IMG/VR virus record: IMGVR_UViG_3300020731_000022
Span: 1-52,797 of that record
Reading direction: 5' to 3' (one strand)
Length of the DNA stretch: 52,797 bases
Source of the DNA: a virus
Lineage: Duplodnaviria; Caudoviricetes
The notes below the pieces were generated by a model. It made no database searches, had not been told where the DNA came from, and saw nothing but the letters and a program-made list of their open reading frames with translations. A program made the position numbers and the translations under genes. Shown one piece after another: positions 6,986-40,778 of this stretch (its first letter is position 1; each line of letters starts with the position of its first letter).

Positions 6986-6993
6986 GTATGCTC

Positions 6994-24366: not shown

Positions 24367-24371
24367 AATGT

Positions 24372-28000: not shown

Positions 28001-28498
28001 TAGATTGGTGCTATTATGATCTACTTCACCATTTTCATTAGTTCTGAAATTACCAGGAATGTGAGTAGATGCTTTTAATCGAAACGAATCAGGTCCATCT
28101 GGTTCATAGAACAAGTGAATATCAAAATGACGACCACTATCGTGATGTTTTATTCCACTGAATATTTGTCGTTCTGGAGGTGTATCTCCAACATCAGCTC
28201 TAGATATTACAGCTGGAAGTTGAGCTAATCTATCTGCAAAACCTTTATGTGGGGTGCTTGCCATTCCTTCAGGAACATGATCGATGCTTGGATAGTTACC
28301 GTTGTACCAGTGTTCTTTGTTGCTATCCCACATGTTTTTGGCGTCATCAATGTGAACATTACCCATTCGTTGTTCGGCGGGTTCTCCAAATGCTGATTCT
28401 CCTACCATTTTTTGATAGTCAGTATTAACAGCTGGGTCTATGTTTCGTACTTCTGCAACTTTAGAGTTGTACTTTACTTTATATTTTGAATTGTACAT
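25061..28498 (-). CDS. Very large Cys-rich hypothetical protein (~1145 aa)
   Basis: Likely start MYNSKYKVKYNSKVA at 28498; many CxxC/CxxxxC pairs. Confidence 0.8.
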   Translation of the reverse strand: MYNSKYKVKYNSKVAEVRNIDPAVNTDYQKMVGESAFGEPAEQRMGNVHIDDAKNMWDSNKEHWYNGNYPSIDHVPEGMASTPHKGFADRLAQLPAVISRADVGDTPPERQIFSGIKHHDSGRHFDIHLFYEPDGPDSFRLKASTHIPGNFRTNENGEVDHNSTNLHGQHVFDVASGAWHPKGETHESPNATASYNPIEVLQSAPEDFADTTGSWTLPTHSEGFCTTCHRFPKLMSKMLDLMRPQKCTVCGEKGRYPKYDWEPGMFPYGRETSAMRQPVSAICGNTKCVNHGNSIAATEAFVDNDYNVLYPGQEGSGERRVYRFSPELHEATTKDLEQLQKGRPDLVKTRETARQLGDLSENEDYKASDRALKALDEKIHLRKVQLNPAHHTIDGLPEGRQNSEFMDEEGNVTAVPFDTVFDNPMIKETYANGNQRGIKRIKLPILSLSCDNKDCIDYGEPIATHVDVEPNKTLPCSHCGRSEKDGVSIARTDGYNRCNPLVYGANNCAPVPEGVDPEAYLGFFKPDPQFKFPTVKPDAETGAGIVFQRDAGEQDRNSPEGLYPGTQTVLMRNPLAPSNTVGHGVESVKNFFLYGKNRPWAFLGMNGRKVANKALPSEQENVATLGDEAITPNSYDEIVRPRILGDAEDIDANDFLPGSDLEISTKYPVRPRNKQVATNSEGEVLHPDLTQEEYNEYLGYNPKSVLGAKDFINHFLSRFSDPSYAKKYPLRLKRRGEGITKKSAINDDYDVDSSYDPNDLELRQSISMPAIPRTRDVVLEGEGMEAPEKELCPTCNGNSVWNKLNLFRYWDTHCRNCKDDTCGTVMNDQQDHCNKCKQKKKGCKGRRKSQIVFKDKDHICPTCKNTGEMTVNRKHCSDCENPKCSGVSSADTIHCDGCPEHDLEVNGYPHDDTPGQHARNSTNSTEESLSPETVSLLKERVKNSLIPNPEAEGIDPKDTAALDYARSIAAEDREESLANYAPPTPNEKAISDIENVGPVIFLRDRGQNIDQPTRSSLEQDLQSQRQEKPSFMGQNAMFDDPQAIAKQEAMMEQDGLPDIAEPKELPEDAPKIINNVPIPRIEHDMGCPKCNRGIIRPEVVGPEEMTRLNGIINEGTAIIKRTVKDPLQQRQQISQLLADTYKCEG

Positions 28499-28515
28499 AA
28501 TCAATTCTTAGCTTA

Positions 28516-29748
28516 TCACTTGTTCAAGATATTTTGCAATTGTGCAATTCTTGAACTAACTCTTGATCCAGCATTTCCCATTGCTTGTCCACCAATACTT
28601 TGAGGTGCCGGAGTTGATACTGGAGTAGGTGTTGGAGCAGCAGGAGTGGCTGGTGCAACAGGTGTCATTGCAGGTGCTGGGGTTGATACTGGAGTAGGAG
28701 TTGGAGTTGGAGTAGGTGCTTGTGTTGCAGGAGCAGGAGCAGCAGGTGTTGGTGCAGGAGTAGATGGAACTGGGGTTGCTTGTGATGTAAGAGGAGTTGT
28801 TGTTGGTGTTGAAGTAGTGGTGGTTGCAGGTGCCGGTGTCGAAGTTGCAGTAGATGAAGTAGGTACAGGAGCTGGTGCTGCAGGAGTAGGTGTGCTTATT
28901 TGATTTTGTGCAATGTTAGGATTAGTACTTATTGCAGGTGCAGGTGTGCTTACAGCAGGAATTGGAGAACTTATAGTGGGAGCAGGTGCAGCAGTTGGTA
29001 CTGTTGGTGCTACTACAGGAGCAGGTGCAGGGGTTGCTGCTATAGGAGTAGCTTTAGGAACTGCTGCTACAGGAGCAGGTGTAGCACTACCACCGGTACC
29101 TGGCATCATAGCAATCATGCCATCTTTAATAAAATTTGTATCGTTTGATCTCTTCAATCTCTCAGATAACTTAGCAATTCTTGCACTAATCTTAGAAGAA
29201 GCATTTTGCATTTGCTGTTCATCAATTCCTTGTGGTGGTGTAGCTTGTACAGGTGGTTGTTGAACAACATCACTAGAAACAGGAGCAGCAGGAGCAGAAG
29301 TAGGTACAAATGTTGTTGGTGCAGGAGTTGTTGGAGCTACAGGTTTTGTAGAATCAATAGATGTATCAACACCTTGTTGTGGAGCTTTTGGAAGATTGTT
29401 TTCATCAATAGTAGGATCACCAGTTAATCCAGGGTGCGTATTAACAGGAGTTGCAGGTGTTGTTTTAACAGGAGTTGCAGGTGCAGGTGTTGTTGCTTTT
29501 TGAAAAGCAGTTGATTGCGCTGGGGTAGCAGTATTTGTTAATGGTTTGCCAGGTGCAATTACACCAATACCACCGTTAGCGCCACCAGTAGGTGTAGAAA
29601 CTGGTTTTGAACTTGCTGGAGTTACACCAGAAGCTTGTTGGTGAGCAGCTGTTTGAGCAGCAGTAGGTAGAGTTACTGTAGGTGGTGCAGCTGGTGTTTT
29701 AGCAACACTTCCACCAGGATTAGCTGGTGCTAGTAATGCTATACGGTA
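28516..29748 (-). CDS. Pro/Thr/Ala-rich mucin-like segment, predicted -1 frameshift extension of 29739..30947
   Basis: The frame of ORF 28516..29211 stays open upstream to about 29769 with no ATG/GTG/TTG before 29211, and overlaps the end of the upstream gene at a slippery site. Confidence 0.75.
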   Translation of the reverse strand, partial: YRIALLAPANPGGSVAKTPAAPPTVTLPTAAQTAAHQQASGVTPASSKPVSTPTGGANGGIGVIAPGKPLTNTATPAQSTAFQKATTPAPATPVKTTPATPVNTHPGLTGDPTIDENNLPKAPQQGVDTSIDSTKPVAPTTPAPTTFVPTSAPAAPVSSDVVQQPPVQATPPQGIDEQQMQNASSKISARIAKLSERLKRSNDTNFIKDGMIAMMPGTGGSATPAPVAAVPKATPIAATPAPAPVVAPTVPTAAPAPTISSPIPAVSTPAPAISTNPNIAQNQISTPTPAAPAPVPTSSTATSTPAPATTTTSTPTTTPLTSQATPVPSTPAPTPAAPAPATQAPTPTPTPTPVSTPAPAMTPVAPATPAAPTPTPVSTPAPQSIGGQAMGNAGSRVSSRIAQLQNILNK

Positions 29749-29754
29749 AAATTT
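29700..29754 (-). other. Programmed -1 ribosomal frameshift signal (A_AAT_TTT, 6-nt spacer, hairpin)
   Basis: In-frame X_XXY_YYZ heptamer at 29748-29754, then ACCGTA, then TAGCATTACT-AG-CACCAG-CTAATC-CTGGTG-GA-AGTGTTGCTA. Confidence 0.75.
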
Positions 29755-30947
29755 GTATCTTTTGATTCCTTAAGAAAGTATGATAGTCTAGCAATCTTAC
29801 GAGCAGCACCCTCTTTAGCATTTGGATTACTTTCGTTTGGATCATTAGGGTCATTATCATTATCTGGATCAGTTGCTGATGGTGCTTTTTGAAACTGCAT
29901 GTTACCTTCAGCAGCATTTGCACTAGGCATTGGAGTTCTAAATGATGATGGTGCTGATGGTGCTGGTGGAGTAGAAGCACCGGATGGCTTGTCCCCTTGA
30001 ACACCTTTAGTAAATTGACTAATAAGAGATCCTGCGGCTGCGGCGGCACCGGCAAATGGTGCAGCAACACCCTTAGCAACGTCAGTTGCAGCAGTTCCTA
30101 CTGCATCAGCAGCACCTGCAACATCATGACGAGCTCTGTCAAATTGATTAGCAGTAGAGTGAGCAACGTCAGTTGCAGCAGTTCCTACTGCGTTTCCAGC
30201 AGATTGTGCAGCAGATCCTACACCAGAAGCAGCATCTCCTACGCCAGTTCCTACAGCGTGAGCAACACCCTTAGCAACGTCAGAAACTTGACTTGGAAGT
30301 TTTTGTACTTCGTTTCCTACTGCTGATACTCCTGTGCCTACTGCTCTTGTAGCATCTCCTACACCAGTTCCTACGGCGTGAGCAACATCTTTAGCGCCAG
30401 TTCCTACTGCATTTGCAACACCCTTAGCAACGTCAGTTGCTTGGCCTGGAAGTTTTGTTACTTCGTTTCCTACTGCCTTTGCAGCAGATCCTACACCAGA
30501 AACAGCATCTCCTACGCCAGTTCCTACAGCGTGTGCAACATCTTTAGCGGCGTTTCCTACTGCTTTTGTAGCCTTGCCTGCACCTGATCCTACATCAGAA
30601 ATAGCTTGACCTAGGTCAGAAATAGGATTCCATCCCCATGCAGTTTTTGTACTACTTTCTTTGCAAAAATCACAGTTAGCGTGGCGAATTGACCATTCTT
30701 CGTATACTGCTCGTACAAGCTTAGCTTTAGAGTCACTGACATTAGCAAGCTTGCGATAAGCTACCTTCTCGATGTCTTCTTCAACCATTTGCATGCGTTG
30801 AGCTAATTCTTTGTCGCTGTGAGCGAGGAATAGAAAATCACCAGTTTTTGTAAGCAATTCATGCTTAGCAGTTACTAGTTTCTTACCGGCAATCTTTGCG
30901 TCAAAAGCAAGATTTACTGTGTCATCGTAATCGAACATCGAGGTCAT
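29739..30947 (-). CDS. Putative virion protein with 11-residue amphipathic Ala/Gly/Val repeats
   Basis: AAGGAG RBS; repeats AVGTGVGDA.SGVGSAA..VGNEV.KLP.Q..DVAKGVA. Confidence 0.8.
   Translation of the reverse strand: MTSMFDYDDTVNLAFDAKIAGKKLVTAKHELLTKTGDFLFLAHSDKELAQRMQMVEEDIEKVAYRKLANVSDSKAKLVRAVYEEWSIRHANCDFCKESSTKTAWGWNPISDLGQAISDVGSGAGKATKAVGNAAKDVAHAVGTGVGDAVSGVGSAAKAVGNEVTKLPGQATDVAKGVANAVGTGAKDVAHAVGTGVGDATRAVGTGVSAVGNEVQKLPSQVSDVAKGVAHAVGTGVGDAASGVGSAAQSAGNAVGTAATDVAHSTANQFDRARHDVAGAADAVGTAATDVAKGVAAPFAGAAAAAGSLISQFTKGVQGDKPSGASTPPAPSAPSSFRTPMPSANAAEGNMQFQKAPSATDPDNDNDPNDPNESNPNAKEGAARKIARLSYFLKESKDTNFTV
30060..30565 (-). repeat. Degenerate direct repeats built from 33-bp units (11-aa coding repeats)
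   Basis: Recurrent gcaacacccttagcaacgtcag and cagttcctac on the plus strand. Confidence 0.8.
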
Positions 30948-31009
30948 CGTGTTACTCCTTATATTGTTCCCGTAGGAACGCTGGACAATAAGCGTTATTC
31001 GCTTACTAC

Positions 31010-31035
31010 CTACGACAGATTCCGTATACTTTTAA
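31010..31035 (-). promoter_or_regulatory. Candidate phage-specific promoter (TTAAAA-N17-TAG)
   Basis: Intergenic, upstream of 30947; same spacing as the other copies. Confidence 0.45.
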
Positions 31036-31036
31036 A

Positions 31037-31112
31037 TGGTAGGAATGGTAGGAATTGAACCCACGACCGAAGGATTATGAGTCCTCTGCTCTTACCACTG
31101 AGCTACATTCCC
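31037..31112 (-). tRNA. tRNA with CAT anticodon, probably Ile2 (lysidine) rather than Met
   Basis: Cloverleaf GGGAATG/CATTCCT; anticodon arm GAGGA-CTCATAA-TCCTT; TTCAATT T-loop; encoded CCA; no initiator features. Confidence 0.9.
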
Positions 31113-31113
31113 T

Positions 31114-31187
31114 TGGCTGAGGGACTAGGACTCGAACCTAGAATAAGGGCTTCAAAGGCCCCTGTGTTGCCATTACACCATCCCTCA
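31114..31187 (-). tRNA. tRNA-Gln(TTG)
   Basis: TGAGGGA/TCCCTCA; GGGGC-CTTTGAA-GCCCT; GGTTCGAGTCC; CCA. Confidence 0.95.
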
Positions 31188-31188
31188 T

Positions 31189-31263
31189 TGGCTCCCCAGA
31201 TAGGATTCGAACCTATAACCTAGCGATTAACAGTCGCTTGCTCTGCCGTTGAGCTACCAGGGA
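31189..31263 (-). tRNA. tRNA-Asn(GTT)
   Basis: TCCCTGG/CTGGGGA; AGCGA-CTGTTAA-TCGCT; GGTTCGAATCC; CCA. Confidence 0.95.
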
Positions 31264-31271
31264 ATGTTTGG

Positions 31272-31631
31272 CTAATCGCCCTTTATTACTCTGATGCTAT
31301 CATCATCAAAATGTTGTGTAGAAAATTCAAATACACGAGCATTTTCTAATCCTATCAATTGGTGACGTAGACCCGTGCGTATGTGAAAAGAATCACCAGG
31401 TTGTAGAACAATTTGCTCTGCCTGATTAATATCGTCAGTTTCACCGTATACAAGAACAACGGAACCATTCTCTACGTAGAATGTTTCATCTTTGATATTG
31501 TGGTAGTGCCAAGAAAGTCTTTTACCTTTGTTGAAATGAAGAATTTTTGAACAATACTTTTCTGTATTGCAAACGATCTCCTCGTAACCCCAACCTTTTA
31601 CTACGCATTCTCTAGCTGAAGAAGTGTTCAC
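31272..31631 (-). CDS. Cupin-domain protein (sugar isomerase-like)
   Basis: KGWGYE, LSWHYH..KDETFYV..G, PGDSFHI..G.RH, EFST. Confidence 0.85.
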   Translation of the reverse strand: MNTSSARECVVKGWGYEEIVCNTEKYCSKILHFNKGKRLSWHYHNIKDETFYVENGSVVLVYGETDDINQAEQIVLQPGDSFHIRTGLRHQLIGLENARVFEFSTQHFDDDSIRVIKGD

Positions 31632-31929
31632 TATTTATTCCTTTATCATCAACATAGAAGTCACCAGACGGTTTCCCCATAATTAATTGGTGGTATTGAC
31701 AACCCCAATCTTGCAATTGTTGTTCTGTTAATTCTCGGAAAAGCTCGCTAGCTTTTACTGGGTCATTATCAGTTCTATCCATACCTCTAGCTGTAAAGTA
31801 AACAACCTTATGACCTTGGTCATATAAACTGTTTACTTGAATTATAGCATCGTGATATGGTTCTGCTTTTGCGTAATCACCATCGATAGTATTGCATATG
31901 GTGCCATCAATGTCAACTACAAACTTCAT
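31612..31929 (-). CDS. HAD-family phosphatase (capsule-biosynthesis type; possible GmhB role)
   Basis: DIDGTIC, FTARG, MGKP..DFYVDDK. Confidence 0.85.
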   Translation of the reverse strand: MKFVVDIDGTICNTIDGDYAKAEPYHDAIIQVNSLYDQGHKVVYFTARGMDRTDNDPVKASELFRELTEQQLQDWGCQYHQLIMGKPSGDFYVDDKGINSEHFFS

Positions 31930-32318
31930 CTTTCTAGAATCCTTGTTGTTGAGTATGGTTCTATTCTTTCAAAATATTTTACAGTCTTGGCATATTCTTT
32001 ACCAGGAAATTCTTTGCCCCACCAATCACTACCAGCAAACCAAATATCTGGGTTAAGGTTTTTTACAATATTGATAAGTTGTTCATCTGAATTAAAAAGT
32101 ACAACATTGTCAACATGTTTTATGGAACTAATAACATATTTTCTATCATTTTCATTATGAAAAGGACGATCAGGACCTTTTTTCTCTGATACGCGTCTAT
32201 CAGTATCAATGGCAACTGTGAGGGTTCCACCATAGCTTTTAGCGTGTTCTAATAATGCAATATGTCCTTTATGGATAACATCAAATGTACCAGTCAGGAA
32301 TAGTTGTTTATTTTCCAT
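31926..32318 (-). CDS. rfaE2: Nucleotidyltransferase, RfaE/HldE domain II-like (heptose-1-P nucleotidyltransferase)
   Basis: GTFDVIHKGH, D..V..KKG..RP, VDNV..F, GSDW, YSTTRILER. Confidence 0.8.
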   Translation of the reverse strand: MENKQLFLTGTFDVIHKGHIALLEHAKSYGGTLTVAIDTDRRVSEKKGPDRPFHNENDRKYVISSIKHVDNVVLFNSDEQLINIVKNLNPDIWFAGSDWWGKEFPGKEYAKTVKYFERIEPYSTTRILER

Positions 32319-33096
32319 TTAAATATTCTTCTATCGTTTTAAATTTGTGGTCACCCCACTCCTTCTTAGCACATGTGTAGGACTGATATTTACCAACCAA
32401 GTGTTCGGGAAATGGAATGATATTTACTTCACCATTATACTGCTTTGCAACGGCATTTGCAACTTCTTCAAAACTTCTTGGATTACTTGTACCAAGATCG
32501 TAGATACCAGATCGTTTGTCGTTGTTTAATACTATATCTACAACATCATCTACACAAATAAAGTCTCTTTTAAAATTTTCTGATCCTTCAAATAGATTAA
32601 GTTTACCAGACTCTTTAATTTGCCACGTAAATTTGCTAACTGGGCTTGCCTGGTCACCTTTATGTTCTTCTCCGTCACCATAGACGTTGAAATAACGAAA
32701 TCCTTGTATAAACTTAAAATCATCGATATTGTCTTGTACCCAGTAATCAATCTGCAATTTAGACATAGCATAATGATTAATAGGGTTAGGTATACCATCC
32801 AAATTGCCATAAACTGAAGCTGATGATGCATACTTTATTGGAATACCGTGATCTCTAGCTTTTTCCAACAATGCCAGAGTGAACTCTATGTTGTAATTAT
32901 ACAATAGTCTAATATTTTTTTCTGTGGTGCTTGATATAGCACCCTGGTGAAGAATAAGTTTAACTTGATCCCATGCATTAAAATTGGAAAGGAAATAATG
33001 ACAGTCTTGTTGATTGACTATCAATATACGTTGTCCATCAAGAGCTTTTAAGAAGTTCTTGCCAATGAACCCTTCGGATCCAGTAAGTATAATCAA
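32308..33096 (-). CDS. rfaD: ADP-L-glycero-D-manno-heptose 6-epimerase-like SDR
   Basis: TG..GFIG, HQGAISSTTE, YASSASVYG, YAMSK, FRYFNVYG..E.HKG.QAS, LFEGSENFKRDFI.V.D; likely TTG start at 33096. Confidence 0.88.
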   Translation of the reverse strand: MIILTGSEGFIGKNFLKALDGQRILIVNQQDCHYFLSNFNAWDQVKLILHQGAISSTTEKNIRLLYNYNIEFTLALLEKARDHGIPIKYASSASVYGNLDGIPNPINHYAMSKLQIDYWVQDNIDDFKFIQGFRYFNVYGDGEEHKGDQASPVSKFTWQIKESGKLNLFEGSENFKRDFICVDDVVDIVLNNDKRSGIYDLGTSNPRSFEEVANAVAKQYNGEVNIIPFPEHLVGKYQSYTCAKKEWGDHKFKTIEEYLNGK

Positions 33097-33797
33097 ACCG
33101 ATTCCCATTCTTCGTGATTGTATTCACCATTATGGTCCCAATATAGTTCAGATCGTGAAGCAGGGTAAACAATATCCCAATCTGTGAATTCGTAACCATT
33201 ATCAACCAATACATCATTTCTGATAGCAATCATATCGTCAGAATGAATCCAAACAGGGGTATATCCGTGTGAGTTGAACATTTTTTTAAATGCATACGGA
33301 GAAGCACCGTACCATCCGTTGTTTGACCATAACCAATTAATATCATATTTGCGTGTTTGGCTTTCATAAGGTTCAAAACGAACATTGTTTTCAACCATCA
33401 CCACTCTAGGAGAATACTTATTAAGCATTGCATCAGTAATCCAGTAATCCATACCATCAAGATCAATTGATACAAAATCTGGCGACTTTGGAACATTGTG
33501 CTTATCAAATAGATCACAAATGTTATCTTTGGAAATCCATTCCATGTGATAATTAATTGTGGTGTTATTTACATGTCTACTGTATTGTTCATCACCTTCC
33601 ATAAGAAGGCCATTCCAACCATTCATGTGCAAGTATGCTGTATTAGACAGTTCTGGCCAATCAGTGGCACCAAACTCAACATAATACTTATTAGTGGTAC
33701 CTATCTTGTCAAATGTATATTCAATAAATGAGTCTTGACCTTTTTGAGAAAACCCTTTGCTTATTGCTGGAACCTGATCGTATCTTAGAATTGTCAT
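33093..33797 (-). CDS. FkbM-like SAM-dependent methyltransferase
   Basis: FSQKGQD, YVEFGA, W.GLLMEG, DFVSIDLDGMDYWI, PRVVMVE.N, GAS. Confidence 0.75.
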   Translation of the reverse strand: MTILRYDQVPAISKGFSQKGQDSFIEYTFDKIGTTNKYYVEFGATDWPELSNTAYLHMNGWNGLLMEGDEQYSRHVNNTTINYHMEWISKDNICDLFDKHNVPKSPDFVSIDLDGMDYWITDAMLNKYSPRVVMVENNVRFEPYESQTRKYDINWLWSNNGWYGASPYAFKKMFNSHGYTPVWIHSDDMIAIRNDVLVDNGYEFTDWDIVYPASRSELYWDHNGEYNHEEWESV

Positions 33798-34519
33798 ATA
33801 GTGGTCACTCCTCGATGTTTTACAACTTCTGATGCACACTCATTGGCATACACAATACTTTGTTCAAGATCTTGACTATTGACGTATTTAACAACCAAAG
33901 CTGCCATAAAAGCATCGCCAGCACCTGAAGAATCTTTGACTTCCATTCTTTTAACAGAATACCGTTTGCCATTGTATTCACATCCATGACCACCCATTGT
34001 GTGAATAATCTTATCTTTATAAGCATTTGTTATATCAGGATCAGAATTATTGTATTCGTAATCATTGATTTTGATTATGAAAGCTTTCTTTGCCCATTTT
34101 CCTAGTTTTTTCTTTGTATCAAGGAATACACGTGGATGTGATTTACAAATTGTTTCAATGTCATCTTCTGTCAAGAATCCTTTATTGTAATCAGAAATAA
34201 CAATGACTTCATATTGTTTATAATCAATTGGTGTATCAAATATACCGTAGTTAGGTTCTGTATCTACTCTAAAGAACGTATGGTTAGTAGCTTCATGCAC
34301 ATATCTTGTCTTAGTAATAGATTCCCAATTGTCATTGGTAATAATACTGCAATCTTCAACAATTGTTATATTTCGCAGTACGTTCATTGCCATACCTTCG
34401 TTCTCTTCTTGATGTAGAACATTCAATACTGGTACTGGCACGTCAGGAGCAAGGCGCACTGCGTCACAATAGACAAATACGTCTTTACAACTTTCACCTA
34501 TCACTAGGATACGTTTCAT
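33794..34519 (-). CDS. rfaE1: PfkB-family sugar kinase, RfaE/HldE domain I-like
   Basis: ILVIGE..D.FVY...RLAPDVPVPV, TKTRY, ISDYNKG, DSSGAGD.F. Confidence 0.85.
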   Translation of the reverse strand: MKRILVIGESCKDVFVYCDAVRLAPDVPVPVLNVLHQEENEGMAMNVLRNITIVEDCSIITNDNWESITKTRYVHEATNHTFFRVDTEPNYGIFDTPIDYKQYEVIVISDYNKGFLTEDDIETICKSHPRVFLDTKKKLGKWAKKAFIIKINDYEYNNSDPDITNAYKDKIIHTMGGHGCEYNGKRYSVKRMEVKDSSGAGDAFMAALVVKYVNSQDLEQSIVYANECASEVVKHRGVTTI

Positions 34520-34520
34520 T

Positions 34521-35723
34521 TTAGTATCTAGACTTCTTTTCAATAATGATAGCTGGACGATTACTCATAGCAGCATTCATAAACGCAAGAACTACTTCTC
34601 TAGCATCGGTAGGTTCAATTACTGGAATAGTTACTGCAGTTTTGAGAACATCAGTAAAGTCTTGTGAGTGTGTAATACCAGAATAGAACGGACCAGAATC
34701 AGCAGACACTGCACGCACAATAACAGGCACTTTGAATTCACCGTGCGAGATTCTTTCAATCTTGTCTAAGTGGTTTACAATAGCATCCATAGCAACCATC
34801 ATAAAATCATGACGTTCGAAGTAAACAACTGGCTTAAAACCTTCAAATGACATACCAATAGCTAGACCCATCATCAAGTTTTCAGCAACAGGTGTTTCAA
34901 TTTTTTGTTCTGCTGGTACACCTTTCAATGTACCCATAGCATCACCTCTTGCTACGTTATAACCAATAAAGACAGCGCCTTCACTACCTAATTTTGTCAT
35001 AACTTGTTCCATAGTATCCTTATACGAAGCACCTTCAGTATCTACAGGAGGATTCAAATATTCATATGGTTCAAGAGGTGGAAAGTACTCATCGTCAGTC
35101 TTTTTTACAGCTTGCGACAAGTCAATCATACCGGGTTTACGTGCATGTGGGTAAGTAATGTCATATTGATATTTCTTTACACACTTAAAAGGCCATTCAA
35201 AATGAGCAGTGCTACCCCAACGCTCTTCATTGGTTGCTTCTACTGAACGGTTGTTAGCTTCAATCACAAAGGTACATGGTAGATCCATGCCTTCTACATA
35301 ACGAGCAGCTTCGAACAAGTGACCATTGTCTTCTGTACCATCTCCAACAAAACACCAGACCTTTTGGTCAGATCCCTTTTTCTTTAGAGCAAGAGCAATA
35401 CCAGCTGCGATAGCAGGTGTACCACCAATGATTGCAGAGCAAAAGAAATTACGTTCTCTGTCATAAACAAACATACTTCGTCCATTAAGGATGCGATCTT
35501 CCAATACATCCTCAGGGATACCGTGTAGGAGAGCGTGATAGTGGCTACGGTGGTTACTAATAACGTAATCACCTTCCTTGATATCCTTAAAGATATCAAT
35601 TAGCTGTTCTTCATTGCCACCTGATAGGTGAAACAAGAATGGCAATTTATTATCTAAGTAAAGATCACCAATTCTATTCTCAAAAGCAATTAGCTCTTCA
35701 GGTGTCCAATTACGCTTATCCAT
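34521..35723 (-). CDS. TPP-dependent enzyme: fused E1-alpha and truncated E1-beta (dehydrogenase/transketolase-like)
   Basis: HRSHYHAL, GDG..D.G..EA...LP..FV.E.NN (TPP motif), ETPVAEN...GLAIGM...G.KPV; no beta C-terminal domain. Confidence 0.85.
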   Translation of the reverse strand: MDKRNWTPEELIAFENRIGDLYLDNKLPFLFHLSGGNEEQLIDIFKDIKEGDYVISNHRSHYHALLHGIPEDVLEDRILNGRSMFVYDRERNFFCSAIIGGTPAIAAGIALALKKKGSDQKVWCFVGDGTEDNGHLFEAARYVEGMDLPCTFVIEANNRSVEATNEERWGSTAHFEWPFKCVKKYQYDITYPHARKPGMIDLSQAVKKTDDEYFPPLEPYEYLNPPVDTEGASYKDTMEQVMTKLGSEGAVFIGYNVARGDAMGTLKGVPAEQKIETPVAENLMMGLAIGMSFEGFKPVVYFERHDFMMVAMDAIVNHLDKIERISHGEFKVPVIVRAVSADSGPFYSGITHSQDFTDVLKTAVTIPVIEPTDAREVVLAFMNAAMSNRPAIIIEKKSRY

Positions 35724-35724
35724 T

Positions 35725-36738
35725 TTATTTATCTTCCATTTCAATCATGATTCTACCGGCACTACCGTTCTTAAGTGTATCAAATGCTTTGTTAACATCA
35801 TACAATTTATATTGATGAGTTACAATTTTATCAATATTAAGTTTACCATCTTTGTTGAGGCTGACATATCGGGGAATATCTTTCGAGGGATCTGTCTTGC
35901 CACCTTGTGTAGCTTTGATGCTGAGTCCGTTGCCATTAAAGAAAGAAAGAGCGTTAGCGATCTCCAAAGATTCACCTGGTTTAGGTTGACCCACTAGGAT
36001 CATTCTACCATTGTTAGATAGATAACCAAAACTCTTTTTGATTGCATCAATGTTGCCCGTAGTATCAATTACTACGTCTACTTTTCCATCAAATTCATAT
36101 TTGTTACTAAAGAACTTGTCAGCACCAGCATCAAACGATAACCATGCTTTATCTTCTTTATTATCAATAGCAACAATTGGATTCACACCACGTAAAACTG
36201 CACCTTGGATTAGGTTTAGACCAACTCCACCAGTACCTATGATAGCAACGCTTTCACCAATCTTAAAATCACACTCATTGTCAATAATGCCAAGTGCAGT
36301 AGTTAAACTACATCCAAGAAGGGCAGCAAAATGATTGGGAGTATCAATAGGAACTGCAGTAAGTCTATTTTCTGAAACTATAGAGTATTCACTTAGTGTG
36401 GTAACCTTACCACTACTGATAGTCTTGCCATTAAGTACATATTCTGGGAACGGAGCTTCAATTCCATTTCCTACACGCCAATGCATGACTACTTTGTCAC
36501 CAGGTTTAACAGTGGTAACACCATCACCAATTTCTTGTACAATGCCACAGCCTTCGTGACCCATAAGGTGAGGTAAAAATTTACCATTACCTTTATTGCC
36601 ATTAATCTCATGTAACTGAGAACCACAGATACCGCTAACAAGTACCTTTACAAGCACTTGGCCAACTTTCAATGATGTAAGTTCTATGTCTTCTACTGAT
36701 AGTGGAGCGTTTAACTCTCTTAGAATAGCAGCTTTCAT
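35725..36738 (-). CDS. Zn-dependent alcohol dehydrogenase (MDR family)
   Basis: GICGSQ, GHEGCG.V..IG.GV..VKPGDKV, LGCS..T, GTGGVG. Confidence 0.9.
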   Translation of the reverse strand: MKAAILRELNAPLSVEDIELTSLKVGQVLVKVLVSGICGSQLHEINGNKGNGKFLPHLMGHEGCGIVQEIGDGVTTVKPGDKVVMHWRVGNGIEAPFPEYVLNGKTISSGKVTTLSEYSIVSENRLTAVPIDTPNHFAALLGCSLTTALGIIDNECDFKIGESVAIIGTGGVGLNLIQGAVLRGVNPIVAIDNKEDKAWLSFDAGADKFFSNKYEFDGKVDVVIDTTGNIDAIKKSFGYLSNNGRMILVGQPKPGESLEIANALSFFNGNGLSIKATQGGKTDPSKDIPRYVSLNKDGKLNIDKIVTHQYKLYDVNKAFDTLKNGSAGRIMIEMEDK

Positions 36739-37571
36739 TAGATCAACTCGTAAAGTGACTTGATAGTACGGAATTTGTCGTTAAGGTCAAATGTTCTTGC
36801 CATATCACGGTAAGGAACATTGGTATTAACACGATCAAGCAAAGATATAAAACTCTCAACTGTTTTCATGCTTTCATCATTCACAGAAGCGATAAATGGT
36901 GCATTTGGTACACCGATAATGTTTTTGCAACGCTTAGCAAGTTTACCAATGTCAATTAAGTTTAGATTGTAATCTTGCGTGCTACGATATCCATCAACTT
37001 TGACGGTTGTGATGACGTTATGACCTTCATTGTTCAGTTTCTTTAACAATGCAGCAAAACTCTTGTCTTGCTCTTCTCTAGACATCCGAAGGATAGGGCT
37101 AACAGGGTAACCATTAATAATCAAGTAGTCAAAGTCTTCATCCAATACATCTTTTGCAAAACATGGTTCATTTAGAATAGTTTCTTCAATAGAATCAAAT
37201 GGTTGTTGCAGATGTGGCAGTTGTTTAGCTAGGTAATTACCAATTTCGTATGACCACATAAAATAACTGCTCAATGTGCTATCTTGCTTTGATACGTGGT
37301 GTGATTCATAAAGACTGTCACCAAGTATGGCATGACACCATAAGTCAATAGAGTAACGTGGGTGTGGCATATCAACAAATTTAATATTTTTATCAAGTAT
37401 TAGTTCTGCTAGCTGTTCTCGGTAATTAACAGGAATGAAAACTTTAGCATTAATCTGTGGATTCTTTTCGCATAGTTTATTTACTACGTGTAATGCTACA
37501 ATACAATCACCGTAGCCTTTATCACAATGGAAATACAAATCGTTGGTCAAAAAAAGATCTAGATTTGGCAT
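36738..37571 (-). CDS. Putative glycosyltransferase, divergent GT9/heptosyltransferase-like
   Basis: N-terminal GYGDCI and C-terminal L.DIG.LAK.CK.IIG.PNAP...S resemble the GT9 motifs (G.GD..; l..a.l.vg.DSg..hla); first gene of the sugar cassette. Confidence 0.5.
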   Translation of the reverse strand: MPNLDLFLTNDLYFHCDKGYGDCIVALHVVNKLCEKNPQINAKVFIPVNYREQLAELILDKNIKFVDMPHPRYSIDLWCHAILGDSLYESHHVSKQDSTLSSYFMWSYEIGNYLAKQLPHLQQPFDSIEETILNEPCFAKDVLDEDFDYLIINGYPVSPILRMSREEQDKSFAALLKKLNNEGHNVITTVKVDGYRSTQDYNLNLIDIGKLAKRCKNIIGVPNAPFIASVNDESMKTVESFISLLDRVNTNVPYRDMARTFDLNDKFRTIKSLYELI

Positions 37572-37642
37572 TTATATAACTTTATCGCAGACCAGAGATG
37601 ATTGTGGTGATTTGAGCAACATTATTATTCTTTCTAATAAAG

Positions 37643-37720
37643 TGGCGATCTCGATGGGACTTGAACCCACGACCCCTTCCGTGACAGGGAAGTGCTCTAA
37701 CCAAACTGAGCTACGAGACC
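37643..37720 (-). tRNA. tRNA-Asp(GTC)
   Basis: GGTCTCG/CGAGATC; CTTCC-CTGTCAC-GGAAG; GGTTCAAGTCC; CCA. Confidence 0.95.
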
Positions 37721-37727
37721 AGAAGAA

Positions 37728-38066
37728 TTACTTCTTCTTGGGTGTAGCTTTCTTGGCAGCTTGTACTTTCTTGGCAGCAGCCTTAACTGGAGTAGGTACT
37801 ACTTTTGGCTCCGATGAAGGCAAAACCTTTGGTGCTGCAGGTTGTGGTAGTGTTCCAAGAAGCCAACCAAACTTAGGGTATTTCTTTTCTAGTGTACTAA
37901 TTGCTGTGTAATACAGACCAGAAACAACAGGTGTCAACACAGCGAATGTACCGGTGTTCAACTTACCCCACTTGGATGTACCCCAAGCAATAAGAGCACC
38001 AACAATGGCTGCAACAAATGCACGACCTGTTGCTCTTGTTGTAGTTGTATTAAGTGGACTTGACAT
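37728..38066 (-). CDS. Actinophage-type membrane protein (holin-like)
   Basis: Two TM segments, LEKKYPKFGWLLG motif, basic tail. Confidence 0.65.
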   Translation of the reverse strand: MSSPLNTTTTRATGRAFVAAIVGALIAWGTSKWGKLNTGTFAVLTPVVSGLYYTAISTLEKKYPKFGWLLGTLPQPAAPKVLPSSEPKVVPTPVKAAAKKVQAAKKATPKKK

Positions 38067-38236
38067 TATTCTTTCTCCTTATTATTGGTGAATTTGACGG
38101 ATACCTGAACACCATTAACTTGAGTACGTAGGCTGTTGAGAAGTCCAGCGATAGTTTCGCTGATCTCTTGGCTTGCGAGCTCGTCGCTTTGGGTATTACG
38201 GGCATCATAACTTATGGATATAACAGCTTTTTTCAT
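38066..38236 (-). CDS. Small hypothetical protein (56 aa), probably leaderless
   Basis: ATG 38236 lies 7 nt after a -10 box and has no RBS. Confidence 0.6.
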   Translation of the reverse strand: MKKAVISISYDARNTQSDELASQEISETIAGLLNSLRTQVNGVQVSVKFTNNKEKE

Positions 38237-38243
38237 AAGAATG

Positions 38244-38272
38244 AATATAATGCATATTTTTGTAAAAGTCAA
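38244..38272 (-). promoter_or_regulatory. SigA-type promoter TTGACT-N17-TATATT
   Basis: Near-consensus boxes with optimal spacing, upstream of tRNA-Asp and the sugar cassette. Confidence 0.7.
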
Positions 38273-38293
38273 GCTTTTTACAAAAAATTATTA

Positions 38294-38827
38294 TTATGCA
38301 ATAATATTGAAAGAAGCAGCTAAATCAGCTGGCATCATTTGATATGGGTTTCTATCAAATATGACACCACCGGCCCACAATGATTGAGCTACTACTGCAC
38401 TGCAAATCATTGTGTTGTTATTTGTAAATTGCAACTTAATACCTGTGATTAAATCCAGGGTAATACTGACTATGGTAAAGAAACCATACTTATCCTTAAT
38501 AAAGCTTTTGCAAGCAGACACCGTTTGATCACGGCTTTGTTTGTTAAGCTTTGTTGTGACGTAGTAATACTCTACATCAGCATACTCACTAATATTGCTA
38601 GTTATTACTCCACGTCCTACTGCCTCAACAATGGTTCCATCTTCGCCAACAATCATTGCAGCATGATTCCATCGAGAAAATGGCTTCATTTTACCATGAT
38701 ATCTAATAAATTGACCAAATCGAATTAACTTGGCTAGGACACCTGTAGTTGATACCAAAATAAAGTCTCCTGGGACATATTGTTTTGGATCTTCACCTGC
38801 GGCATATATCTTATATGTCGAAGTCAT
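38294..38827 (-). CDS. Permuted papain-like (YaeF/YiiX, NlpC/P60) amidase/peptidase
   Basis: PGDFIL, WNHAAM..G, VEA...GV, KY, ICSAVVA (His before Cys). Confidence 0.8.
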   Translation of the reverse strand: MTSTYKIYAAGEDPKQYVPGDFILVSTTGVLAKLIRFGQFIRYHGKMKPFSRWNHAAMIVGEDGTIVEAVGRGVITSNISEYADVEYYYVTTKLNKQSRDQTVSACKSFIKDKYGFFTIVSITLDLITGIKLQFTNNNTMICSAVVAQSLWAGGVIFDRNPYQMMPADLAASFNIIA

Positions 38828-39896
38828 TTATATCGCCTTCATAATCGTATGTTTCATTAATTCCAAAGAAGGATCCGTAAGCTGCACCACCTAGCGGATG
38901 CTCACCGACACCCAACATATCTAATGTTGATCCATATTCTCTTTTAATACCTTGTTCATCTTCTTCTTCTTTATTATCTATCACAGATGCTGTAATACCA
39001 GCAAGTGGTGCTGATGAAGATGACAAATCATAATCTTTGTTGCGTTCTACACCTAGTTGTGTACCTTGTTCATTACCAGGTTGAGTTACAAACCAGCTAG
39101 CACCGCTTATAGGGGCTCCTCCGCCAATTCCGGTACCTGGGTTAGCCTTCTCATGCAATCCACCGTCTCTAGGTGGGTCTCCGACGCTTTGAAAGCCATT
39201 TGGTTTGTTAAGAGTAAAAGCACTACCTGCATCGGTATCAATAGCAATACGTTTAAAACCACCAAGAACGGCGGGAAGTGGACGATGTTGCTTTGCACCA
39301 GTTTCTAATTGATCTTGTGGACCAGTTTCTACTCTATTGGCATCACTAGTAAGATCAGCAGGTGTTAAACCATGTACAAAAGATTGGTCTTCCGAAATAA
39401 GGTCGGTGGGGTCTGCGTATTTAACGCTAGCGTGGTGTCCAAGAGTGTCATCTGGATCTGCATCGATTTGATACTTAGGAACACGGTTAAGAGGAGTGTT
39501 TAATTTTTCATCTACGCCAGTATTACCGGTATTAGGGTCAACATTGGGGGCAAAAGCTCCTACACTTCCTGCACCCGTAGAACGTTCACCGAAATCCATG
39601 ATTCCTGCTTGTGGCAGTCGTAGGATTTGGATTTTGCGAATAGCATCCTGAGCAGTAACGCTTTCAACAAATTGATTCCAAAGAATTTTATCTCTAGCAA
39701 GTGTTGATGTTAGCTCTGAGCCAAGTGATAGGGTAAGTATAAAACCTTCATCATGAACAGTTACTTCTGGATCTGCTTCGTAACCCTCAAATTGTGACAT
39801 TATAGAACGAATGATGCCTTCACGGTTGTCTTTAGTCACATAAGGATTAAAAACACAGCGAAAATTCTTCCTCTGTAGTCCAAGAGAATTGCTCAT
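38811..39896 (-). CDS. Hypothetical protein (putative head-internal)
   Basis: 361 aa, acidic; SVKYAD and FKRIA motifs. Confidence 0.75.
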   Translation of the reverse strand: MSNSLGLQRKNFRCVFNPYVTKDNREGIIRSIMSQFEGYEADPEVTVHDEGFILTLSLGSELTSTLARDKILWNQFVESVTAQDAIRKIQILRLPQAGIMDFGERSTGAGSVGAFAPNVDPNTGNTGVDEKLNTPLNRVPKYQIDADPDDTLGHHASVKYADPTDLISEDQSFVHGLTPADLTSDANRVETGPQDQLETGAKQHRPLPAVLGGFKRIAIDTDAGSAFTLNKPNGFQSVGDPPRDGGLHEKANPGTGIGGGAPISGASWFVTQPGNEQGTQLGVERNKDYDLSSSSAPLAGITASVIDNKEEEDEQGIKREYGSTLDMLGVGEHPLGGAAYGSFFGINETYDYEGDINDFDI

Positions 39897-39899
39897 ATA

Positions 39900-40778
39900 C
39901 TACATACGCGGATACTTGAGCTTTTTAAACCGTTCTAGGCTAGTGCCTTCATATCTACGACATAAGTAATCAAGGGAAACAAACATTGGGTCATAGCTTC
40001 CGCCATTAACTTGATGTTTAACGACAATACCACGCCAGTGAGCATTACCCTGAGGTCCTTTGTAGTTTTCATCATGCAGATAACAAGCACCTGCTACGAG
40101 GCCATGTTGGGATCGTGCTCCACCATCTCTACCATCACCATTTACATATCTCAGACCATAGAGAAGAGTCTGCTGGTGCCCCATAGTAAAAGAATGACCA
40201 ATGCTCTTAAGACGACCATCGATTGTTCCACCATAAGGATTACCCGTCATTGGGTTATAAAAGAAGTGACTGTAAGCTACGCCATCAAGCCATAGAATTT
40301 CTTTGAATGGCTTTACTTGCCATCCAGTACGAGCGTAATCAAGGTCGTCTGTGCTAAACAATCCATCAATTTGAGCATCATTTTCAGTTGCACGGTTAAT
40401 ACGGTCTTCGTGATTACCTAAAAGAATATGACGCTCTGGATTCCATTTTGCGTGCTTAGTCTTACGTTGTTGATCATTGTAATCGTAAATAGGTTGATTA
40501 AGAATACGCCATGCTTCGTTAGCAGATTCAATGTCTTGAACTACTCTGCGACCTTCCATGCTCTTCTTTCCTTTATCATACAATGAAAGAGCTGGCATAT
40601 CTGCATGGTCACCTAGGTGAATAATCTTAATATTCTTGTTGCGATATTCCTCAACGATAAACATTCCAATCCAATTCAGGTGGTCTGTAGGAACACCGTC
40701 CTTGGCTTGAGTATCTGGAATTACAATGTGTACAACTGGTTCGGTTTCTACTTGCAATTCTTTTTTCTTAAGGGTCAC
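39900..40778 (-). CDS. Calcineurin-like metallophosphoesterase
   Basis: IPDTQ, HLGDHAD, LGNHE, YSH, MGHQQ. Confidence 0.85.
   Translation of the reverse strand: MTLKKKELQVETEPVVHIVIPDTQAKDGVPTDHLNWIGMFIVEEYRNKNIKIIHLGDHADMPALSLYDKGKKSMEGRRVVQDIESANEAWRILNQPIYDYNDQQRKTKHAKWNPERHILLGNHEDRINRATENDAQIDGLFSTDDLDYARTGWQVKPFKEILWLDGVAYSHFFYNPMTGNPYGGTIDGRLKSIGHSFTMGHQQTLLYGLRYVNGDGRDGGARSQHGLVAGACYLHDENYKGPQGNAHWRGIVVKHQVNGGSYDPMFVSLDYLCRRYEGTSLERFKKLKYPRM

Follow-up and report, generated by a model that had tools for sequence, protein, structure and literature searches.

What would a tailed phage build with nine genes that resemble a nucleotide-heptose pathway and include a putative glycosyltransferase, and to what would it attach the product? 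The window (the whole 52,797-nucleotide stretch of DNA analysed here) raises this question at positions 31272–37571, where the minus strand is filled by nine co-directional ORFs at exactly the coordinates given in the initial annotation. We consider it most likely that these genes form a compact mobile module that builds an unusual activated sugar of the seven-carbon type and attaches it to an acceptor. We tentatively favour a virion protein as that acceptor, a reading to which we assign a probability of roughly 0.4, with a small lead over the alternatives. The features of the locus are as follows.

37643..37720, minus strand: tRNA-Asp (gtc), found by ARAGORN; upstream boundary of the cassette
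36738..37571, minus strand: GT-B glycosyltransferase of GT9-like fold, 277 aa (AlphaFold model and structure comparison)
35725..36738, minus strand: Zn-dependent medium-chain alcohol dehydrogenase (Zn-ADH), 337 aa (PF08240 and PF00107; phrog_2640, E 2e-88)
34521..35744, minus strand: minimal single-chain ThDP enzyme (PF00676 and PF02779; phrog_34187, E 1.6e-204)
33794..34543, minus strand: PfkB-family sugar-phosphate kinase, closest to HldE domain I (PF00294; phrog_8133, E 6e-84)
33093..33839, minus strand: FkbM-like (Methyltransf_21) methyltransferase, longest ORF 248 aa (homologues matching PF05050)
32308..33108, minus strand: SDR nucleotide-sugar epimerase, closest to ADP-glycero-manno-heptose 6-epimerase (HldD) (PF01370, E 1.4e-22)
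31926..32318, minus strand: cytidylyltransferase-like nucleotidyltransferase, closest to HldE domain II (PF01467, E 1.5e-18)
31612..31929, minus strand: small HAD-IIIA-type phosphatase, 105 aa (phrog_1238, E 4e-29)
31272..31631, minus strand: metal-binding cupin, 119 aa (PF07883, E 4.7e-9; phrog_7851, E 4e-50)
31037..31263, minus strand: tRNA-Asn, tRNA-Gln and tRNA-Met array, found by ARAGORN; downstream boundary of the cassette

This layout upholds the nine-gene cassette proposed in the initial annotation: with the longest starts taken, the ORFs overlap by 1–46 nt at every junction, and their order is kept across lineages. The true starts of four ORFs probably lie a few codons downstream, likely at M8 in the ThDP enzyme and M9 in the kinase, while the methyltransferase is probably a 234-aa protein starting at M15 (33093–33797). 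The cassette is lower in GC (0.355–0.383) than its flanks (0.40–0.43), which, like the tRNA genes on both sides, speaks for mobility. A tRNA-Asp likewise precedes the transferase gene in the loci L004, L009 and L012, where equivalents of the tRNA-Asn/Gln/Met array follow the cupin gene; the tRNA genes on either side of the cassette had gone unmentioned before. The order (transferase, ADH, ThDP enzyme, kinase, optional methyltransferase, epimerase, nucleotidyltransferase, phosphatase, cupin) is kept in two sister clades at 64–87% identity and also in G004, an unrelated phage whose transferase is only 32% identical and whose matches to the window's ORFs are limited to the nine cassette genes and one DNA-binding protein. 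The arrangement is not due to chance, since the order is maintained in three clades of related phages, in this unrelated phage and in many metagenome contigs.

The kinase, phosphatase, nucleotidyltransferase and epimerase had been read as a heptose-pathway-like set, and NCBIfam matches bear this out. The best model for the kinase is TIGR02198 (rfaE_dom_I; E 6e-28; 97.9 bits, cut-off 345) and for the nucleotidyltransferase TIGR02199 (rfaE_dom_II; 101 bits, cut-off 181.5, versus 78 bits for TagD); the epimerase matches TIGR02197 (heptose_epim; E 2.8e-63; 214 bits, cut-off 274.6). The phosphatase matches TIGR01689 (capsule biosynthesis phosphatase, E 7e-11) and TIGR01662 (HAD-IIIA, E 5e-5), and we propose for it a GmhB-like role. 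Catalytic motifs of the cassette enzymes are intact, among them GAGD at residue 207 of the kinase, HKGH and STTR in the nucleotidyltransferase, GSEGFIG and YAMSK in the epimerase, and DIDGT, GKP and DD in the phosphatase. In the pathway to ADP-L-glycero-beta-D-manno-heptose (GmhA, HldE or HldA plus HldC, GmhB, HldD), the kinase, nucleotidyltransferase and epimerase thus each have their best-match counterpart, and a HAD-IIIA-type phosphatase is present as well. The cassette differs from that pathway in its shorter proteins, in the additional cupin, ThDP enzyme, Zn-ADH and methyltransferase, and in having no GmhA/SIS gene; a search of the phage records for a GmhA-type (SIS) isomerase found none. 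Because every heptose-pathway score falls below its curated equivalog cut-off, the sugar may not be a heptose. The cupin, with HYH....E and GLRH motifs and weak matches to D-lyxose/mannose-6-P isomerase, is proposed to be a sugar(-phosphate) isomerase or epimerase.

Two further enzymes are always paired, the Zn-ADH gene adjoining the ThDP gene. The Zn-ADH carries C38, GHE at residue 60 and GTGGVG at residue 168. The ThDP enzyme combines an E1-alpha-like PP domain with an E1-beta/transketolase PYR domain, has no C-terminal domain, carries a GDG...NN motif beginning at residue 134, and matches the alpha and beta chains of PDH E1 among PDB sequences (E 1e-11). E1-like alpha/beta pairs of the AviB1/AviB2 type add two-carbon branches to NDP-sugars. 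The cassette resembles them in its PDH-E1-like PP and PYR domains without a C-terminal domain, set in a sugar pathway, and in the pairing with a reductase-type enzyme; it differs in having both domains fused in one chain, and an NDP-hexose 4,6-dehydratase is not evident. In the L012 clade, moreover, a split transketolase-type enzyme replaces the E1-type enzyme, so that substrate supply fits as well as tailoring. The methyltransferase is a variable accessory: the clades of L009 and L012 lack it, while G004 and the cyanophage S-SM2 have it. A direct Pfam search with its 248-aa ORF gave no match; 22 of 40 aligned homologues match PF05050 (FkbM; best E 1.5e-6), as do 28–48% of the members of its Atlas neighbours.

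The 277-aa protein appears to represent a new sequence family and a new small branch of the heptosyltransferase fold, and we propose it as the transferase for the cassette's sugar. Searches of Pfam (including the GT9 family PF01075), PHROG and NCBIfam gave no match. Its AF2 model, built from an 80-sequence alignment, has a pLDDT of 93.5, and its best Foldseek matches in the PDB are WaaC, WaaF and TibC (E 2e-6). VIA-align gives Z scores of 14.1 for WaaC, 14.0 for WaaF, 13.3 for 3tov (GT9) and 12.5 for TibC, 3.5–5 units above other GT-B families, the next of which reaches 9.0; the model thus supports the GT9-like, GT-B fold expected in the initial annotation. WaaC, WaaF and TibC cover nearly the whole model (223–229 aligned residues), and the N-terminal GD motif is present: G21 is invariant and D22 occurs in at least 90% of the 80 sequences, the pair aligning with HLGD of 3tov. 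Identity to these proteins is 9–14%, however, and their matched chains are longer (320–381 aa). TibC is dodecameric and binds iron through a Cys cluster, whereas the sequence of the phage protein has no CxxC pair. BFVD neighbours include GT9-like proteins of giant viruses and phages, which we count in favour of a virion acceptor. In 20 of 22 metagenome loci a relative of the transferase has ADH, ThDP or kinase genes as immediate neighbours, and the other two contigs end directly after the transferase gene.

From the gene content, the families and folds, the gene order and the linkage of transferase to pathway observed here, we infer the chemical steps, the nucleotide and the acceptor of the following scheme. 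A mobile glycosylation module, inserted in the tRNA array of a large low-GC actinophage, would be expressed in the cytoplasm of the infected cell. The cupin, the sole isomerase candidate because GmhA is absent, would convert a ketose phosphate, most simply sedoheptulose-7-P, to an aldoheptose phosphate. The RfaE-I-like kinase would phosphorylate the anomeric position, the small HAD enzyme would remove the distal phosphate, the RfaE-II-like enzyme would form the nucleotide (probably ADP) sugar, and the HldD-like SDR would epimerise it. The Zn-ADH and the ThDP enzyme may add or prepare a two-carbon unit, by chain extension, by branching or as ketose supply, a role that is guesswork. In the clade of the window phage the FkbM-like enzyme would methylate the sugar, and the GT9-fold enzyme would transfer it to a phage virion protein.

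The pathway core has already been annotated, without a known function, in the "LPS" islands of the cyanomyophages S-SM2 (SSM2_197-211) and P-TIM68 (gp189-195). Orthologues of the ADH, ThDP enzyme, kinase, epimerase, nucleotidyltransferase, phosphatase and cupin occur there at 39–72% identity (ThDP enzyme: 71% in P-TIM68, 60% in S-SM2), with tRNA genes nearby and the gene order almost unchanged, and S-SM2 also carries the FkbM-like gene. These clusters appear as T4-GC 304–308 in Sullivan 2010 (PMC3037559). They differ from the cassette in host phylum and phage backbone, and the 19-kb cyanophage loci contain no member of the 277-aa transferase family. Among isolate phage records all 31 kinase matches are cyanophage or marine-virus sequences. 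The carriers differ in virion and host type (Cluster C-like actinophages, G004 and T4-like cyanophages), which makes the module independent of any one envelope type and speaks for a virion acceptor.

For this phage, which we take to be an aquatic one of low-GC actinobacteria, the evidence supports an actinobacterial host, as the initial annotation had held: the MCP and portal are 65% and 40% identical to those of Cluster C mycobacteriophages, while the related contigs G001 and G002 and the unrelated cassette-bearing phage carry WhiB genes. Decoration of the virion is modelled on virion glycosylation in mycobacteriophages and giant viruses. Like Che8 and its relatives, the window phage has its own glycosyltransferase, here with a methyltransferase, and a mycobacteriophage-related head module. 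To our knowledge, glycosylating mycobacteriophages of the Che8 type carry transferases but no full sugar-nucleotide pathway. The window phage differs in having such pathway genes, and its transferase finds no tblastn match among 50,697 isolate phage records. Freeman 2023, as cited in passages of PMC12619734 and PMC11256854, places glycans on the C-termini of mycobacteriophage capsid and tail-tube proteins. It counts against a virion acceptor that the MCP in the window has no extra C-terminal tail, since it aligns to the Cluster C MCP through its last residue. SG-rich surface proteins had been put forward as candidate acceptors in the initial annotation. S/T/G-rich fibre-like proteins are present in the window, G001 and G004; being common to most tailed phages, they do not discriminate between acceptors. 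The repeat protein adjoining the cassette (29739–30947) keeps only its N-terminal domain across clades in which its low-complexity part is replaced and the transferase stays 70–72% identical.

Only slightly less probable is that the GT9-fold enzyme instead loads the sugar, from the cytoplasmic side, onto a glycolipid of the infected actinobacterium or onto a lipid-linked precursor of its wall or capsule; the altered surface may block superinfection or keep progeny from adsorbing to debris. WaaC and WaaF, the nearest in fold among characterised GT9 enzymes, have lipid-linked glycans as their substrates; their Z scores, slightly above that of TibC, were counted against a virion acceptor, and the presence of TibC, a protein O-heptosyltransferase, among the closest folds was counted for it. 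Comparing the window's ORFs with G004 revealed no conserved phage-encoded acceptor, and the lack of an acceptor protein common to the cassette-bearing phages G000 and G004 also fits a host target. The argument that an actinobacterial host has no LPS and the sugar must therefore serve something else loses force because the seven-gene core lies in G005, a 1.4-Mb cellular genome (a streamlined actinobacterial chromosome with WhiB, CarD and GlnR), about 7 kb from a surface-polysaccharide island with UGDH, Wzy_C, GT2/GT4 and ABC-transporter genes, in a low-GC island and with a ThDP enzyme 74% identical to that of the cassette; this position points to a cell-envelope sugar. Papers on cyanophages also assign such genes to LPS or the cell wall (PMC3037559, PMC12801897). 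Against a host target, the ThDP enzyme has matches at E<=1e-20 in only 3 of 301 sampled genomes of the same order, close in just one; the copy in the cellular genome may itself have arrived by transfer. The cassette is also used by phages whose hosts, Gram-positive in some cases and Gram-negative in others, have unrelated envelopes, and Pfam and PHROG searches of it found no flippase, Wzx or Wzy gene. We know of no lytic phage shown to carry a complete cytoplasmic sugar pathway that alters the host surface.

Glycosylation of a modified base in the phage DNA, evading restriction as in T-even phages, is improbable. Its appeal is that the cassette of G004 follows genes for a DNA polymerase, a UvsX-like protein and a resolvase, that diverse DNA glycans are described (Pyle 2024, as cited in PMC12619734), and that the transferase family profile can be set against T4 alpha-glucosyltransferase, albeit with a non-significant E of 0.8. 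Yet no gene that would prepare the DNA was found in G000, G001 (89% complete) or G004 (82% complete), where we searched for ThyA-like hydroxymethylase, ThyX and TET/JBP, the TET search being weak, with its control positive in no genome; this absence was also counted in favour of a virion acceptor. Phage DNA glycosyltransferases are small GT-B enzymes, which counts for such a role, but DNA glucosyltransferases are not among the 50 best fold matches of the model. G004, moreover, has two GT9-like paralogues, the second directly after the cupin gene (hhalign 95.7%), and a GT2-like gene, which suggests an oligosaccharide.

There is similarly little to recommend a soluble end product, be it a modified sugar nucleotide or a small glycoside, a rerouting of pentose-phosphate carbon, which the transketolase-type replacement in the L012 clade would fit, or functionless "stuffer" DNA, an idea raised for cyanophage LPS clusters in Sullivan 2010 (PMC3037559), for all nine ORFs are intact, with catalytic motifs, at 32–87% identity across lineages, and the pathway comes with a closely linked transferase of its own.

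The minus strand at 31272-37571 had been described as a coupled nine-gene cassette, and we confirm this observation: nine co-directional ORFs occupy the stretch, with neighbours overlapping by 1-46 nt when the longest starts are taken. The IMG/VR viral contig itself (52.8 kb, completeness 33%, overall GC 0.40) carries all of its long ORFs on this strand. In order of transcription, the cassette and the flanking tRNA genes called by ARAGORN are:

37643-37720, directly upstream of the cassette: tRNA-Asp
36738-37571, minus strand, gene 1: 277-aa protein (hereafter the transferase); no Pfam, PHROG or NCBIfam match
Gene 2, minus strand: Zn-ADH (PF08240/PF00107; phrog_2640)
Gene 3, minus strand: 407-aa ThDP enzyme (PF00676, PF02779; phrog_34187, E 1.6e-204)
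Gene 4, minus strand: PfkB kinase
Gene 5, minus strand: 248-aa protein with no direct family match
Gene 6, minus strand: SDR epimerase
Gene 7, minus strand: cytidylyltransferase-like enzyme (the nucleotidyltransferase)
Gene 8, minus strand: 105-aa HAD phosphatase
Gene 9, minus strand: 119-aa cupin, with weak mannose-6-P and lyxose isomerase similarity
31037-31263, directly downstream of the cassette: tRNA-Asn/Gln/Met

Since tRNA genes lie on both flanks, the cassette splits a tRNA array. GC is 0.355-0.383 over 32001-38000, compared with 0.428-0.431 over 28001-32000 and 0.399 over 38001-40000. A scan of 30800-38300 was uninformative, returning 29 promoter-like sites where 27.4 were expected and 2 terminator-like sites where 3.9 were expected. 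The catalytic motifs are intact (GAGD, HKGH/STTR, GSEGFIG/YAMSK, DIDGT/GKP/DD, GDG...NN and GHE). The ThDP enzyme combines an E1-alpha-like PP domain with a transketolase-type PYR domain and has no third domain; among PDB sequences it matches the alpha and beta proteins of PDH E1. A 234-aa database protein with 100% identity places the most likely start of the 248-aa ORF at M15. The 248-aa protein itself does not match the FkbM model PF05050 and its family profile finds no solved structure at E<=10, while PF05050 is matched by 22 of 40 aligned homologues (best E 1.5e-6) and the FkbM family appears in 28-48% of members of its atlas neighbours. Taken together, these sequence comparisons make a putative FkbM-like methyltransferase a fair reading.

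The initial annotation viewed the enzymes as a heptose-type set. This holds to the extent that the best NCBIfam model for the kinase, the nucleotidyltransferase and the epimerase is in each case an ADP-heptose enzyme, although every score falls below its equivalog cut-off. TIGR02198 rfaE_dom_I is best for the kinase (E 6e-28, 97.9 bits, cut-off 345) and TIGR02199 rfaE_dom_II for the nucleotidyltransferase (101 bits, cut-off 181.5; TagD scores 78 bits), and TIGR02197 heptose_epim gives the epimerase 214 bits (cut-off 274.6). The phosphatase has the HAD motifs and reaches 23.5 bits with TIGR01662 (cut-off 44.6) and 42 bits with TIGR01689 (cut-off 162). We envision a scenario in which the kinase, HAD, nucleotidyltransferase and epimerase together follow the scheme of ADP-heptose synthesis. 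The ADP-glycero-manno-heptose pathway has the sedoheptulose-7-P isomerase GmhA, whereas a GmhA-type SIS isomerase (PF13580) is absent from this phage record (G000), from the contig of a related phage (G001, 89% complete) and from an unrelated cassette-bearing phage (G004, 82% complete), in a search that was positive in 9 of 14 control genomes. Because GmhA is lacking and the cupin weakly resembles the two isomerases listed, the cupin is the sole candidate for the ketose-aldose step. The ADH/ThDP pair could serve to oxidise a primary alcohol and attach two carbons, or it might instead supply a ketose phosphate. A phosphonate route built on a ThDP decarboxylase and an ADH was rejected, as PEP mutase is missing and the ThDP enzyme belongs to the E1/transketolase type.

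A word-indexed search retrieved only 7 near relatives of the transferase, and a search of 1.84 billion representative proteins gave 193 at E<=0.001. Its structure was modelled from an 80-sequence alignment (pLDDT 93.5, pTM 0.91); a model from six sequences (pLDDT 50.7) was discarded. In a Foldseek search of the PDB, the GT9 heptosyltransferases WaaC and WaaF and the protein O-heptosyltransferase TibC come out on top (E about 2e-6), and other GT9 chains, 3tov among them, come next. VIA-align, which is independent of Foldseek and covered 48,161 chains, scores WaaC at Z 14.1 (229 aligned, rmsd 4.0), WaaF at 14.0, the GT9 protein structure 3tov at 13.3, a plant NDH subunit at 12.6 and TibC at 12.5, with the next family, a GT1 enzyme, at 9.0. 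With GT9 chains leading both rankings, the GT9-like fold anticipated for 36738-37571 is borne out by the predicted structure. In WaaC an N-terminal Gly-Asp motif carries the catalytic Asp. The transferase family has such a motif, with G21 invariant and D22 present in at least 90% of the 80 sequences, and a weak profile match (E 0.25) places the pair opposite HLGD of 3tov. The modelled fold is GT9-like and the sequence test for GT9 membership failed: the transferase has no match to PF01075 at E<=10, just one of 80 family members touches this model (E 0.007), and a six-frame search with it found nothing in G000, G001, G004 and the cellular genome G005.

Protein O-heptosyltransferases of the TibC/AAH type are dodecameric and have an iron-binding Cys cluster. 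The transferase has six Cys and no CxxC pair; in VIA-align its model covers TibC residues 65-380 only. Neighbours of the transferase in BFVD include giant-virus proteins, proteins from uncultured phages that bear the names GT9, RfaF or Aah/TibC, and S-SM2 and S-T4 proteins without a name. The transferase sequence shows neither a signal peptide nor a membrane segment, and cytoplasmic action is therefore expected. The cassette defines an unannotated transferase family, together with a minimal ThDP enzyme/ADH pair.

The transferase is tied to the pathway genes. Eleven IMG/VR loci carry a close relative of it; they form three clades, whose transferases are 99%, 72% and 70% identical, and the order GT-ADH-(ThDP)-kinase-epimerase-NT-HAD-cupin is kept in every locus that is long enough. 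In G004 (103 kb) the transferase is only 32% identical, and behind it come the other eight cassette genes in the same arrangement, at 44-74% identity. When window ORFs of at least 70 aa were compared with this phage (BLASTP E<=1e-4), the nine cassette genes and one DNA-binding protein matched and nothing else did, so the G004 phage backbone differs. A second member of the transferase family lies right after the G004 cupin gene (hhalign probability 95.7%, E 9e-9), and a GT2-like gene comes next. A metagenome scan, for which 10 sequences were aligned, extended the transferase range from 99% down to 26% identity over 22 loci, several of which are the same contigs as IMG/VR loci and hence not independent. 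In 20 of these 22, ADH, ThDP or kinase genes adjoin the transferase; in the two exceptions (L049 and L062) the contig ends less than 400 nt past the gene. The FkbM-like gene is optional, being found in 5 of the 22. In L012, from the 72% clade, the E1-type ThDP gene is replaced at 11844-13614 by a split transketolase-type pair (Transketolase_N PF00456, 250 aa; Transket_pyr PF02779, 179 aa) and a 188-aa ORF without a Pfam match. This replacement suggests that the pathway needs a minimal ThDP enzyme rather than one particular lineage, and would be compatible with both roles considered for the ADH/ThDP pair. Viral contigs searched with the single distant transferase relatives P0128, P0129 and P0135 gave no match.

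Loci L056-L067, which hold distant relatives of the transferase (26-33% identity), are on contigs of 30-33% GC with long co-directional runs of genes for proteins of 200-350 aa, a layout that resembles large cyanomyophage glycan islands. In L059, a flank gene shares 80% identity with cyanophage epimerases, and one flank ORF of L064 had no match in phages.

The core of the pathway is already known from cyanomyophages. Their LPS-cluster core (T4-GC 304-308) has orthologous kinase, nucleotidyltransferase, HAD, cupin and epimerase genes in the same order, with tblastn identities of 39-60% to S-SM2 and 41-58% to P-TIM68 and PHROG E-values of 4e-29 to 6e-84. With the ADH and ThDP enzyme included, the counterparts are P-TIM68 gp189-195 and S-SM2 SSM2_197-211, at 39-72% identity; at the nucleotide level, the sole megablast match of the whole cassette is a 294-nt stretch of the S-SM2 epimerase gene. 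Of 50,697 records of isolate phages, the kinase matches 31, every one from a cyanophage or marine virus, while the transferase matches none of the 50,697 at E<=0.1 and its family HMM finds no member in the S-SM2 and P-TIM68 loci. What sets the present cassette apart is the Gram-positive host context and the new GT9-fold transferase family tied to it. The part of Sullivan 2010 (PMC3037559) that treats the "LPS genes" notes that they co-occur near tRNAs in three phages and leaves their function open. These clusters have been without an assigned function since 2010. The same core in phages of LPS-less Gram-positive hosts, always joined to a dedicated GT9-fold transferase, argues for a purpose that is independent of the host. 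The cassette offers a compact nine-gene unit that can be reconstituted.

The host is best read as a low-GC aquatic actinobacterium. Cluster C mycobacteriophages have matches to the MCP (65% identity), the portal (40%), the protease domain and one other head protein; within a 49-kb stretch of phage Alice, no further match to the window was seen. WhiB is a marker of actinophages (PMC10202952). The window itself has no WhiB gene; genes above the Pfam cut-off number three in the syntenic G001 (131.9 kb), two in a second related contig (G002) and two in G004, and the 14 control genomes were positive only in Corynebacterium. The phage records here have a GC of 40-47%, which fits the 44.7% of phages of a freshwater actinobacterium of 46.5% GC (PMC10202952). 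The Cluster C-like head genes and the WhiB genes of relatives thus support the actinobacterial host proposed at the outset; a Gram-negative host whose LPS is the target does not apply, and the LPS core was rejected as acceptor on this evidence. Few phages of streamlined freshwater-type actinobacteria are known, and these records add a large, Cluster C-like lineage to them.

Candidate acceptors of the sugar are a virion protein, the host envelope and phage DNA. To our knowledge, wherever the target of a virus-encoded sugar pathway has been proven, it is the virion or DNA. This precedent, the closeness of TibC in fold and the occurrence of the module in phages whose hosts' envelopes are unrelated lead us to favour, tentatively and at somewhat less than even odds, a virion protein of the phage as the acceptor. 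Glycans documented on mycobacteriophage capsids and tail tubes, as Freeman 2023 is cited in the relevant portions of PMC11256854 and PMC12619734, point the same way. Co-occurrence of the cassette with SG-rich proteins, the test proposed at the outset, does not discriminate, since all three records (the window, G001 and G004) have S/T/G-rich proteins; and the repeat part of the cassette-adjacent protein (29739-30947) is not conserved across clades.

Transfer to the host envelope is the strongest competitor, though we consider it rather unlikely. WaaC and WaaF are the top fold matches of the transferase, no acceptor protein common to the cassette-bearing phages was found, and a cellular copy of the cassette lies beside a polysaccharide island. 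This copy was the one close match in a search of genome contigs, in a 1.4-Mb genome (G005) with four WhiB genes:

G005:C2:160001-215000 (L040-L042): seven-gene pathway core, cellular, in a low-GC island near a polysaccharide locus

The genes at 182.6-187.5 kb encode the nucleotidyltransferase, cupin, ADH, ThDP enzyme (74% identical), kinase, an SDR and HAD, on a contig that also encodes CysS, IspDF, CarD, GlnR and Fur. GC dips to 0.42 over these genes compared with about 0.50 in the flanks, and the polysaccharide island (UDP-glucose dehydrogenase, Wzy_C, GT2, several GT4 and an ABC transporter) starts about 7 kb away. The resemblance of an adjacent 274-aa ORF to the transferase family is weak and confined to the N-terminal GD region (hhalign 52%). 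The ThDP enzyme is matched at E<=1e-20 in 3 of 301 sampled genomes of the same order, two of them at 39-42% identity; in cells, the cassette is a rare island gene set. Against the envelope stand the unrelated host envelopes that, as noted for the virion, the module's carriers face. Some other acceptor or fate is less probable still. Phage DNA is improbable: the G004 cassette comes after DNA polymerase, UvsX-like and resolvase genes and so adjoins replication functions, yet no ThyA-like, ThyX or TET gene was found in near-complete relatives (the TET search being weak and its control silent) and G004 has several transferases.

The overall interpretation offered initially is therefore partly supported. 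We give roughly one chance in four to the full model in which aquatic actinophages make, by a self-contained pathway, an undescribed O-methylated heptose derivative, two-carbon-extended or branched, that a new minimal branch of the heptosyltransferase fold places on their own virion proteins. If true, phages would have their own equivalent of TibC-type protein heptosylation, with the same module exchanged with cyanophages.

Several genes near the cassette and the head genes also deserve mention. Downstream of the MCP, 305-6415 encodes a 2036-aa protein that is 40% Ser+Thr+Gly, and 6446-8409 encodes three proteins of 179-234 aa with similar S/T/G-rich composition. All four lack a Pfam match and may be head or tail fibres; Alice has a head fibre annotation in the matching region. 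Two genes upstream of the portal gene encode an 857-aa protein (21805-24378) with a weak DnaJ CXXCXGXG-type match and a sister-clade counterpart of 23% identity, and a 1147-aa protein (25061-28504) with many Cys pairs and a GreA/GreB N-terminal-like segment (PF03449, E 1.6e-8). A 231-aa protein (28516-29211) has 21% Pro, 19% Ala and 17% Thr between two short helical-looking ends, and its gene coincides with a GC-skew spike of +0.233 (28001-30000). The first gene after the cassette (29739-30947; L009:16141-16959 and L012:16604-17209 in the sister clades) has a conserved N-terminal domain of ~110 aa with a CxFC end, and a C-terminal part that is swapped between Gly/Ala/Val repeats (window), a Pro/Asn/Lys-rich tract (L009) and a short tail (L012). 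On the other side, a close relative (L013:3748-4422) has an intact 224-aa ORF with an N-terminal hydrophobic segment between a small membrane-protein gene and the transferase gene. Remnants of just 61 and 40 aa persist in L004:6780-7084, and in the window (37572-37727) and L005, contigs otherwise near-identical to L013 and L004, the ORF is lost and only tRNA-Asp is left. Just upstream of the cassette, 37728-38827 holds a possible lysis cassette: a permuted papain-like amidase of 177 aa (below the cut-off of PF05708, E 1.9e-5) and two ORFs of 68 and 112 aa, the latter with hydrophobic segments and a Lys/Pro/Ala tail.
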